DNA from: an uncultured archaeon
GTDB taxonomy: Archaea > Asgardarchaeota > Thorarchaeia > Thorarchaeales > Thorarchaeaceae
Direction of reading: 5' to 3'
DNA: 64,000 nucleotides
Assembly: GCA_964631415.1 (NCBI GenBank)
Contig: CAZVZC010000001.1
Span: forward strand, 68,638 to 132,637
The notes under the pieces were generated by a model that searched no databases, had not been told where the DNA came from, and worked only from the letters and a program-made list of their open reading frames with translations. Positions 3,642 through 40,977 of the stretch are shown one piece after another. The first letter of the stretch is position 1; the number at the start of each line of letters is the position of its first letter. Made by a program: the position numbers and the translations under genes.

Positions 3642-3747
3642 TGGTGGGCCCGGGGGGACTTGAACCCTCGGCGGGCAGGTTATGAGCCTGCTGCTTACGG
3701 CGCTCGCTCAAAGGCGAGTGAACTCTACCAAGCTGAGCTACGGGCCC
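3642..3747 (-). tRNA. tRNA with CAT anticodon, probably tRNA-Ile2 (agmatidine type), with about 29-nt D-arm intron (about 22/23; 3696-3724), encoded CCA
   Basis: Acceptor GGGCCCG/CGGGCCC (Ile-type), anticodon arm GCAGG-CTCATAA-CCTGC, T-loop TTCAAGT; removing the insert restores GCTC-AGCTTGGTA-GAGC. Confidence 0.88.
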
Positions 3748-39901: not shown

Positions 39902-40421
39902 TTCCGCCTGCCACTTCGTAGCCAAAGTCTAGAGCCCACATACCCAATGCAGTGGGAAAGAACGAGGGCCAAACCAAGGCGGAAAGCAGTACAGCACATT
40001 TCAGGGTGAAGCGGTACCTGAAGAAGAAATGTGCTCGGGAGTTCTGTTTCATGTCAGTCCAATCGTGACCCCGTTCATCGAATGCTGCTGCGAGCAGCAA
40101 TGCCATGACCAAGACTAACCAGTTGACCCAGTTGATGACATTGGGAACTCCCCTGATAGCCAGCACGGCTCCAATGAGAAGAAAACCAATCACGAACTGT
40201 GGCTTGTTGACCTTGCCTGTGAGAAGCACGCCAATGACTATCGCGGTGAGCAAGGCCAAGTCCCATTCTGAGAGGCTCATGATCACGCCAAACAGCACGC
40301 CAGATAGGGCTAAGGGAAACCAAGCGAAACCGGGCCTGTCCAGCTCATCAAGCAGATCATCGCCCATCTTCAGAGTGAGGCCTGCCAACCAGTACATGAC
40401 AAAGTAGACAATCCACCACAC
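39843..40421 (-). CDS. hypothetical multi-pass membrane protein
   Basis: Several TM segments, K.GDD..DE motif. Confidence 0.75.
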   Translation of the reverse strand: MWWIVYFVMYWLAGLTLKMGDDLLDELDRPGFAWFPLALSGVLFGVIMSLSEWDLALLTAIVIGVLLTGKVNKPQFVIGFLLIGAVLAIRGVPNVINWVNWLVLVMALLLAAAFDERGHDWTDMKQNSRAHFFFRYRFTLKCAVLLSALVWPSFFPTALGMWALDFGYEVAGGIMRRMPVSDHEVQVSSRHP

Positions 40422-40467
40422 CCTCTATCATCTCACAAGTGCCGAGATTGGAGTGGCTCCTCAGACT

Positions 40468-40535
40468 CACCTCAGCTTAACTATGACTCATCATTGGACT
40501 TACGTCCTAGGATAGCCTTTGGTCATCATTGGATA
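40468..40535 (-). ncRNA. box C/D guide sRNA
   Basis: Minus strand: C ATGATGA (40529-40523), 12-nt guide, D' CTAG, hairpin GGAC-GTAA-GTCC, C' ATGATGA (40494-40488), 12-nt guide GTCATAGTTAAG, D CTGA (40475-40472). Confidence 0.85.
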
Positions 40536-40590
40536 GTCCAAGGGACTCCTCCAAAGGAACTGAATATCCCGATAAAAGATGTTGTTGGAC

Positions 40591-40875
40591 TCAGAGAAGG
40601 GCCACGGGCGTACCCAATGCCTGTCCGGGTAGGTTAGTTCGGAACTTCGCACGGACCGCCCCACTGTTTCCATGCACGCCGAGCACCTTTCCAAGGAACT
40701 CGCTTCCTGATGCAGAAACCCACTTGATGTCCCGACCAACAAGGACTGCGGCTCCACTCTTTGATTCGACACCATCAAACTGCAGAATGACTTGGCCATG
40801 GTGCTGGAGGTGCTTTCCTCTACGATAGCTAATAACGACGCCCTTGCGGCCTTTCATCACATTGCTTGTAGACAT
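40591..40875 (-). CDS. rpl35ae: 50S ribosomal protein L35Ae (eL33)
   Basis: SYRRG, HGNSGAVRAKFRTNLPGQALG. Confidence 0.95.
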   Translation of the reverse strand: MSTSNVMKGRKGVVISYRRGKHLQHHGQVILQFDGVESKSGAAVLVGRDIKWVSASGSEFLGKVLGVHGNSGAVRAKFRTNLPGQALGTPVALL

Positions 40876-40977
40876 GGCATCTCCTCGTATTGTGGGTTCC
40901 CGATGCTGCTCGCCAGACCACATTTAAGACTTACTGAATGATAGCAGATGGCCTCTTGGCTCCACCCCTCTGCTTGA

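Follow-up and report, generated by a model that had tools for sequence, protein, structure and literature searches.

The stretch of Thorarchaeaceae DNA analyzed here, 64,000 nucleotides (nt) in length and referred to below as the window, encodes a box C/D RNA on its minus strand at about positions 40539-40463, directly behind the ribosomal protein gene rpl35ae. All of the elements of such an RNA are present, and we consider it very probable that it is a conserved C/D guide RNA of Thorarchaeota built to direct the 2'-O-methylation of A1913 (E. coli numbering) in helix 69 of the 23S rRNA. The case is carried by the anatomy of the RNA, its conservation and covariation among relatives, the site that its guide addresses, and the protein genes found in the same genome. 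In the proposed mechanism, a small RNA (sRNA) of ~75-85 nt would be transcribed from its own TATA-type promoter behind rpl35ae and would assemble with L7Ae, Nop5, and fibrillarin; its D guide would pair with nine loop nucleotides of helix 69 and fibrillarin would 2'-O-methylate the A1913 equivalent, which lies five positions from box D. The RNA would represent the Thorarchaeal orthologue of an old archaeal double guide, in which the D guide addresses helix 69 and the D' guide the helix 70/71 strand. In the present genome, as in the one most closely related to it, the D' half would have decayed, leaving a single guide or at most a weak rRNA-folding clamp. Judged by its sequence, we regard the RNA as new but belonging to a known family of archaeal guides, of which it is a somewhat degenerate representative; a Thorarchaeota genome thereby gains a C/D sRNA that is well supported and had not been annotated.

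The D guide and its helix 69 target

A box C/D sRNA carries a RUGAUGA motif near its 5' end and a CUGA motif near its 3' end, which are joined by a terminal stem, and all three were found at this locus (Table 1). An earlier sequence-only reading of the window had likewise called a box C/D guide RNA here, which is borne out by the boxes, spacing, stems, conservation, and covariation. Its assignments of boxes C, C', and D, the internal hairpin, and the 12-nt guides all stood, whereas the strand was corrected to minus and its choice of CUAG as the D' box gave way to CCUA upon alignment with 61 relatives.

The D guide is antisense to the loop of helix 69, which in the host 23S rRNA reads GGGAC-UAACUAUGA-GUCUC. 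Guide positions 3-11 form nine contiguous Watson-Crick pairs with positions 2042-2050 of the host large subunit (LSU) rRNA, covering the whole 9-nt loop, and U40480, the fifth nucleotide upstream of box D (N+5), forms a Watson-Crick pair with LSU A2044. A blastn search of the host helix 69 region against E. coli returned no match and the numbering was instead taken from the annotated K-12 rrlH gene, in which the homologous loop begins at U1911; A2044 is therefore the equivalent of A1913, precisely the N+5 site that had been proposed earlier. The earlier proposal also held that the host contains UAACUAUGAC and that the assignment would fail in its absence. This sequence is indeed not present in the host 23S, which has ...GAG instead, and the duplex comprises 9 bp rather than 10-12. 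The target is nonetheless retained because the 9-nt loop is fully paired.

To survey relatives, we searched Asgard genomes by BLAST and then with a covariance model (R1) built from 62 non-identical Thorarchaeal sequences. R1 found exactly one copy per genome in 24 of the 26 sampled Thor-family genomes, one copy in the single sister-family genome, and one copy in 12 of 13 genomes of the Heimdallarchaeaceae, including Heimdallarchaeum endolithica PR6, H. aukensis PM71, and AB_125. Fewer matches were obtained in five further families (f9, f17, f18, f12, and f22), and the other Asgard families with matches include Njordarchaeota, a Heimdallarchaeota metagenome-assembled genome (MAG), Loki CR_4, and Atabeyarchaeum. 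In the present genome, the model matched positions 109100-109175 of the contig that holds the window (window 40538-40463) at 68.9 bits. Both stems covary, with 7 of 10 pairs changing on both sides and 97% of cells paired, compared with 30-52% when the partners are slid. The terminal stem of the relatives reads GGCUCC/GGAGCC and has compensatory changes at four of its six pairs, while three of the four pairs of the internal hairpin change on both sides (95.9% of cells paired). Conservation of that hairpin is limited to its 4-bp stem, as the GUAA tetraloop is not conserved.

The D guide follows its target in a similarly strict manner. Its core UCAUAGUUA, invariant in all 62 sequences, coincides exactly with the segment paired to the helix 69 loop, whereas the flanking spacer nucleotides vary. 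Among 20 genome-matched pairs of sRNA and 23S, the duplex spans 8-11 bp and the N+5 pair is U:A1913 in every one. Helix 69 itself is the same in every sampled relative except for one Thor-family genome (G022), which differs only in the closing pair. At the edges of the duplex, Thor and Heimdallarchaeaceae genomes have C1910 and guide position 2 is G in 11 of 14 Thor pairs and 2 of 3 Heimdallarchaeaceae pairs, which yields a canonical 10-bp duplex over positions 2-11; the remaining pairs, including that of the present genome, carry A at this position. Families f9 and f18 have G1910 in the rRNA and C at guide position 2, and guide position 10 is C opposite G1918 or, in f18, U opposite A1918. With A at position 2, the guides of the present genome and of its nearest relative form only 9 bp. 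In G022, where the closing pair is A1910-U1920 rather than C-G, positions 2 and 12 of the guide (locus L156) are A and U, both unpaired; the guide thus does not track the closing pair in every case. Taken together, the conservation, the stem covariation, and the guide-target covariation place the family far beyond chance.

The host genome also encodes the proteins that such an RNA would require. The assembly comprises 81 contigs and 2.16 Mb, with one 23S and one 16S gene, and contains fibrillarin (PF01269, 295.8 bits) and Nop5 (PF01798, 213.9 bits) as adjacent genes on contig C8, together with two L7Ae-family genes (PF01248, 96 and 68.9 bits).

Several observations on this particular copy weigh against a methylation guide. 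Its R1 score is the lowest among the Thor-family matches located behind rpl35ae, as the others score about 70-96 bits; its terminal stem is imperfect and its D-box region duplicated, and its D' box is degenerate. The latter may weaken symmetric assembly of the ribonucleoprotein (RNP), which is reportedly needed for efficient methylation in archaea. The duplex with the host rRNA is A/U-rich, with two G-C pairs among its 9 bp, and has an A-C mismatch at guide position 2, and the host 23S gene lies on another contig of a MAG with 85% completeness and 2% contamination. Furthermore, a random 12-mer would have a match of at least 9 bp covering N+5 somewhere in the host rRNAs with a probability of about 0.058, and the 9-bp rRNA match of this copy alone is accordingly marginal and weak evidence. 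One could therefore ask whether box-like motifs in an intergenic spacer have simply come together by accident. In addition to the match probability of about 0.06, such a view could point to Rfam scores below the gathering thresholds and to a fold energy for the RNA plus its leader that is unremarkable (z = -1.4), although the latter is normal for C/D sRNAs. A single conserved copy per genome across many genera, together with covarying stems and guide, is nevertheless not what accident produces, and the comparative data refute this explanation, which we regard as extremely improbable.

Two other explanations accept the RNA and question its function. The D guide can form a 12-position duplex with the D-arm region of tRNA-Pro(UGG), comprising nine Watson-Crick and three G-U pairs, which would make this tRNA rather than the 23S its target. 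However, the N+5 position of that duplex is a G-U wobble, whereas a Watson-Crick pair is required there (PMC6009581), and the part of the guide that is conserved across the phylum both matches the helix 69 loop exactly and covaries with helix 69, which renders a tRNA target very improbable. Of greater weight is the notion that the RNA serves mainly to chaperone or clamp helices 69-70 while the 23S rRNA is nascent and that in this genome, given the degenerate D' box and the 9-bp duplex, it directs hardly any methylation or none. Within the family, the sites addressed by the D and D' guides lie 15-40 nt apart, an arrangement proposed to aid rRNA folding (PMC4644070; PMC6009581), and the C'/D' motif is weakened in this copy. 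Set against this are the Watson-Crick U:A pair at N+5 in all 20 genome-matched pairs and the register of the guide to box D, which is strictly kept even in Bathyarchaeia and Sulfolobales, as would be expected if methylation were under selection. A role confined mainly to chaperoning thus seems unlikely to us, and chaperoning and methylation are in any case compatible with each other. A guide for methylation of A1913 is the reading that we retain.

Anatomy of this copy and its D' half

The elements of the RNA and its surroundings are listed in Table 1, in which coordinates are window positions and element sequences are read as RNA from the minus strand.

Table 1. Elements of the box C/D RNA, neighboring features, and D' guide targets of its relatives
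Feature	Position	Strand	Remark
rpl35ae (eL33) open reading frame, neighbor outside the RNA	40923-40591	-	Pfam PF01247, E 2.8e-19
TTTTATC motif, candidate TATA box (putative function)	40577-40571	-	14 nt past the rpl35ae stop codon
5' strand of terminal stem GGACUAUCC	40539-40531	-	pairs with 40471-40463
Box C AUGAUGA	40529-40523	-	box positions 2-4 (U-G-A) do not vary among the 62 aligned sequences
D' spacer CCAAAGGCUAUC, 12 nt, apparently vestigial guide to 23S helix 70	40522-40511	-	
Degenerate D' box CCUA	40511-40508	-	alignment columns 28-32; relatives mostly CUGA
Internal hairpin GGAC-GUAA-GUCC, between D' and C'	40507-40496	-	
Box C' AUGAUGA (consensus)	40494-40488	-	
D guide GUCAUAGUUAAG, 12-nt spacer	40487-40476	-	antisense to 23S helix 69 loop
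Box D CUGA	40475-40472	-	
3' strand of terminal stem GGUGAGUCU	40471-40463	-	
D' target in Thor family	23S 1928-1940 (E. coli numbering)		7-10 bp; N+5 = C1934
D' target in Heimdallarchaeaceae	23S 1937-1946 (E. coli numbering)		
D' target in f9	23S 1943-1951 (E. coli numbering)		
D' target in f18	23S 1942-1949 (E. coli numbering)		

Both spacers measure 12 nt as parsed in the sequence-only reading, and the D' spacer measures 11 nt with the D' box as aligned. The relatives carry CUGA as their D' box, and their D' guide addresses the strand that immediately follows helix 69 on its 3' side, 15-40 nt downstream of the D target. This pairing follows lineage-specific changes in helix 70/71, as the D' guide is UAUGGCUA with rRNA UAGCCAUA in one genome (G014) and ACUAGACAA with rRNA UUGUCUAGU in f9. 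The family is thus an archaeal double guide of the typical kind, its targets being closely spaced, as in the descriptions of Dennis et al. 2015 and Lui et al. 2018. D and D' targets are usually located within 100 nt of each other, and H68, H69, and H71 are methylation hotspots in archaea (PMC4644070; PMC6009581). In the two f9 loci (L133 and L134, from G073 and G163), the N+5 position of the D' guide was counted as G1945; by the offset 2256 = 1913, this would be yeast Gm2288, a second site in helices 69-71 common with eukaryotes.

The present copy has lost most of this pairing. The sequence-only reading could assign no target to the D' guide and proposed to align both guides with the host rRNAs and tRNAs. 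This gave the 9-bp 23S duplex for the D guide, while the D' guide keeps only 7 bp (one of them G-U) with host GGUAGCC at E. coli 1929-1935, has no duplex of at least 9 bp in the host 16S or 23S, and matches nothing convincing among 25 tRNAs predicted by ARAGORN. Given the D' pairing of the relatives, we read the D' half of this copy as a decayed helix 70 guide whose function has probably been lost, in which case the copy would show a double guide decaying into a single guide. Where a second, internal kink-turn (k-turn) would form, the copy has a consensus C' box but a D' box, CCUA, without the G of the sheared pair, and this replacement of the G of the sheared A-G pair by U occurs both here and in several related lineages. 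Loci L003-L009 and L087 have D' boxes without the G (CUUA, CCUA, GUUA, or CACA) and a C' box that stays consensus (AAUGAUGA or GAUGACGA; columns 49-55), and the lineages with D' CUGA mostly have the unusual C' box GCGACGA. An alternative D' box, AGGA at 40508-40505, was rejected, as L009 has the same degenerate D' box and carries AGGG there. A segment of the closest relative (G002) that extends across the former D' box, GGCUAUCUUAGG, shows complementarity over 12 positions, two of them G-U, to 23S 1924-1935.

The terminal stem of this copy is also unusual, consisting of 2 bp, a 2x2 internal loop, and then 5 bp. A second CUGA follows at 40464-40461, and then GGAGCC (to 40455), which together resemble a duplicated or leftover copy of the ancestral D box and 3' stem. 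The 3' end at 40455-40471 on the minus strand reads CUGAGG-UGAGU-CUGAGGAGCC, where the relatives have a single CUGAGGAGCC, and the 5' stem strand has changed likewise, being GGACUAUCC here and GGCUCC in the relatives. This rearrangement of the terminal stem is lineage-specific and common to the OWC3-like relative. Upstream of the RNA, the predicted minus-strand leader contains CCUUUGG (40550-40556), which is complementary to CCAAAGG of the D' spacer (40516-40522), and GGAGUCC (40549-40543), which is able to pair with the 5' terminal-stem strand GGACU(A)UCC. At many other Thor loci, an upstream AUCAUYGGA is able to pair with UCCGAUGAU, comprising stem and box C. Through such pairings of the leader, the precursor may adopt another fold in which box C or the D' guide is masked.

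Homologues in other archaea and counterparts in eukaryotes

The helix 69 A1913 guide family is defined by a D guide that is antisense to the loop with A1913 at N+5, an arrangement that the Thorarchaeal RNA has. A pattern scan for this guide register across 185,579 species genomes found it in about 30 Bathyarchaeia MAGs and in Sulfolobales HS-7. R1 scores were about 35-44 bits for Heimdallarchaeaceae, 31-34.5 for Bathyarchaeia, and 22.6 for Sulfolobales HS-7; homology across the family thus appears detectable by R1, with convergence possible for the most distant members because a large share of the score comes from the short conserved guide and the boxes. Pattern matches in Euryarchaeota UBA605, Poseidoniales, and Nanobdellati, as well as in about 30 bacteria, were discarded as chance, as about 50 such matches were expected by our own estimate and those tested were missed by R1.

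Among the known RNAs, the closest counterpart is Sac-sR113 of S. acidocaldarius (Dennis et al. 2015, BMC Genomics 16:632, PMC4644070, Additional file 1), an expressed archaeal C/D sRNA that reads …GUGAAGA-CUCAGAGUUACU-CUGA and, like the Thorarchaeal RNA, addresses the helix 69 loop with an antisense D guide in an identical register (…AGUUAC-N-CUGA). Its target is given as position A2179 of the 23S alignment (printed 'A21779') and A2178 is equated with E. coli A1912 (PMC4644070); A2179 is one position further and hence A1913. Sac-sR113 differs from the Thorarchaeal RNA in that it is compact, at about 58 nt, its D'-C' linker measures 3 nt (k-loop), and no second target is predicted for it. Its guide has G opposite 1916, where the Asgard guides have U, and linkage to rpl35ae was not seen in the data compared. 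No guides of the ATAGTTA type were found in the supplements of Dennis et al. 2015, and the Sulfolobus-type helix 69 differs at one loop position.

The second set of counterparts consists of an unannotated double-guide sRNA from Bathyarchaeia (for example, loci L209, L211, L233, L241, and L267), with the D guide AUCAGAGUUACA-CUGA in the same helix 69 register and a GGCC terminal stem. As in the Heimdallarchaeaceae homologues, its D' guide UGAAGGCAUUAG is antisense to the helix 71 strand AAUGCCUU, and the helix 71 D' guide AAGGCAUU is common to both groups. These RNAs belong to a different phylum (Thermoproteota) and, unlike the Thorarchaeal RNA, have a 4-nt linker, lack an internal hairpin, and direct the D' guide to helix 71 rather than helix 70. 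Indeed, the internal hairpin is absent from both the Bathyarchaeia and the Sulfolobales homologues, in which the linkers are 3-4 nt, and the Asgard RNAs would therefore seem to carry an internal k-turn-like motif where the TACK homologues have a k-loop. The family is kept in single copy from Sulfolobales and Bathyarchaeia to Heimdallarchaeia and is always aimed at the helix 69 loop adenosine.

The same adenosine is targeted by box C/D guides in eukaryotes. We take yeast Psi2258 to be the equivalent of E. coli position 1915. Yeast 25S Am2256, located two nucleotides before Psi2258, is guided by snR63 (PMC5699541), and human 28S A3739 is guided by SNORD46, with Giardia GlsR7 and the cryptophyte nucleomorph RNA GtNM-R8 acting on the same site (PMC6461891). 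The earlier equation of the predicted site with those of snR63 and SNORD46 is thereby upheld. Like the Thorarchaeal RNA, snR63, SNORD46, GlsR7, and GtNM-R8 are all box C/D guides for this helix 69 adenosine (the predicted site here), although those of eukaryotes exceed it in length and are for the most part encoded in introns or organized in another way. Helix 69 forms an inter-subunit bridge (PMC5699541), and the retention of a single-copy guide together with the eukaryotic methylation of the same adenosine argues that this 2'-O-methylation is old and functionally important.

What did not survive the comparison is the idea of a special parallel between Asgard archaea and eukaryotes, as Sac-sR113, Bathyarchaeia, and one Sulfolobales genome have the same guide in the same register. 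The covariance search that had been suggested recovered the family across Asgard genomes, whereas no match to SNORD46 or snR63 emerged from Rfam: a cmscan of window 40380-40640 against 4227 Rfam families at E ≤ 10 returned ten families, all of them generic C/D RNAs and neither of these two among them, with snoR38 (23.9 bits, E 0.095) as the top match at the locus and below its gathering score. No sequence or structure homology to the eukaryotic snoRNAs beyond the generic boxes was detectable, and the relation to SNORD46 and snR63 would accordingly be one of functional analogy, not membership. A bolder conjecture is that the helix 69 guide is one RNA lineage that was present in the TACK-Asgard ancestor and passed vertically into the first eukaryotes as snR63/SNORD46/GlsR7, with the Asgard-specific internal stem, which would make a true C'/D' k-turn out of a k-loop, as an intermediate toward the longer architecture of eukaryotic snoRNAs. 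We consider this rather unlikely; if true, the RNA would be among the very few individual guide RNAs traceable across the archaeon-to-eukaryote transition.

Transcription and genomic setting

The likely start codon of rpl35ae is the ATG at 40875, which gives a protein of 94 aa, and its stop codon (TGA, 40593-40591) lies 51 nt ahead of the terminal stem of the sRNA. The closest rpl35ae loci are those of Thorarchaeota MAGs (OWC3, 93% amino acid identity), which bears out the earlier attribution of the window to an Asgard archaeon. The guide lies on the same strand within ≤~150 nt of the end of rpl35ae in 55 of 65 fetched Thorarchaeota loci, whereas in a few loci it is further off or missing, and rpl35ae is directly upstream in all 24 Thor-family covariance-model loci that have an rpl35ae match. 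The linkage also exists in f2 and f18, and is not found in Heimdallarchaeaceae, f9, or f17.

Between the rpl35ae stop codon and the sRNA, a motif (A)A-N-TTTTATC is conserved. Its TTTTATC begins 36-38 nt before box C in 49 of 62 Thor loci, and exactly 36 nt before it in 45, which places its center about 25-26 nt ahead of the terminal stem, while its spacing to the stop codon is variable. In the present genome, it lies about 10 nt further upstream of the stem than usual. Archaeal TATA boxes are spaced in this way from the start site of transcription. Most archaeal C/D sRNAs are independently transcribed (PMC6009581). Because the motif is fixed in its spacing to the sRNA and variable in its spacing to the stop codon, and because independent transcription is the rule for such RNAs, we consider it more likely that the sRNA has its own TATA-type promoter just behind rpl35ae than that it is excised from the ribosomal protein mRNA, and the promoter-like motif yields a concrete prediction of the transcription start site.

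The sequence-only reading had favored processing from the rpl35ae transcript, in the manner of snoRNAs hosted by ribosomal protein genes. Under this explanation, the sRNA would be co-transcribed with rpl35ae and cut from the 3' untranslated region of the mRNA, and TTTTATC would be an oligo-T stretch at which transcription ends or pauses. Archaeal transcription can be terminated at T-runs, and throughout nearly all Thorarchaeota, as well as in two other Asgard families, the sRNA gene follows rpl35ae on its strand after 40-50 nt; both points favor co-transcription. On the other hand, a terminator would not explain why TTTTATC keeps its distance from the sRNA rather than from the stop codon, the non-T positions (A and C) of the motif are conserved as well, the same sRNA is found away from rpl35ae in the three families named above, and the prevalence of independent transcription among archaeal C/D sRNAs speaks in the same direction. 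Hosting by rpl35ae is therefore unlikely. Beyond the preferred promoter, TTTTATC could double as a terminator, transcription may read through from rpl35ae, and the promoter and mRNA-processing routes could coexist. Four raw-read RNA runs under the same species label yielded 0 reads on window 40400-40950, a result that speaks neither for nor against expression.

As regards other C/D RNAs in the host, a strict genome-wide scan that required a D' box of the form xxGA and a contiguous 4-bp stem found nothing and missed this RNA as well, while a relaxed scan gave four candidates versus one in a reversed-sequence control. A guide-first scan was dominated by noise (13 vs 7 matches at 10 bp and 91 vs 39 at 9 bp). 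This crude scanning of the genome revealed no other canonical C/D candidate with an rRNA target, and mesophilic Asgard archaea appear to have few C/D sRNAs. On contig C66 of the same genome, at about 2560-2640 on the plus strand, we noted the element GUGAUGU-GACAAGGCAU-CUGA, which forms 10 bp with the helix 71 strand AUGCCUUGUC. Its N+5 position falls on LSU 2073, which is the site addressed by the D' guide in the homologues from Heimdallarchaeaceae and Bathyarchaeia. The element showed no convincing second pair of boxes and may be a separate C/D sRNA or half-mer.

A search of the window against Rfam returned nothing above any gathering score except for two tRNAs. These are two genes of ~103 nt on the minus strand, at 2606-2708 and 3645-3747, which scored 54.3 and 46.9 bits, respectively, and were missed by ARAGORN; they are probably intron-containing archaeal tRNA genes.

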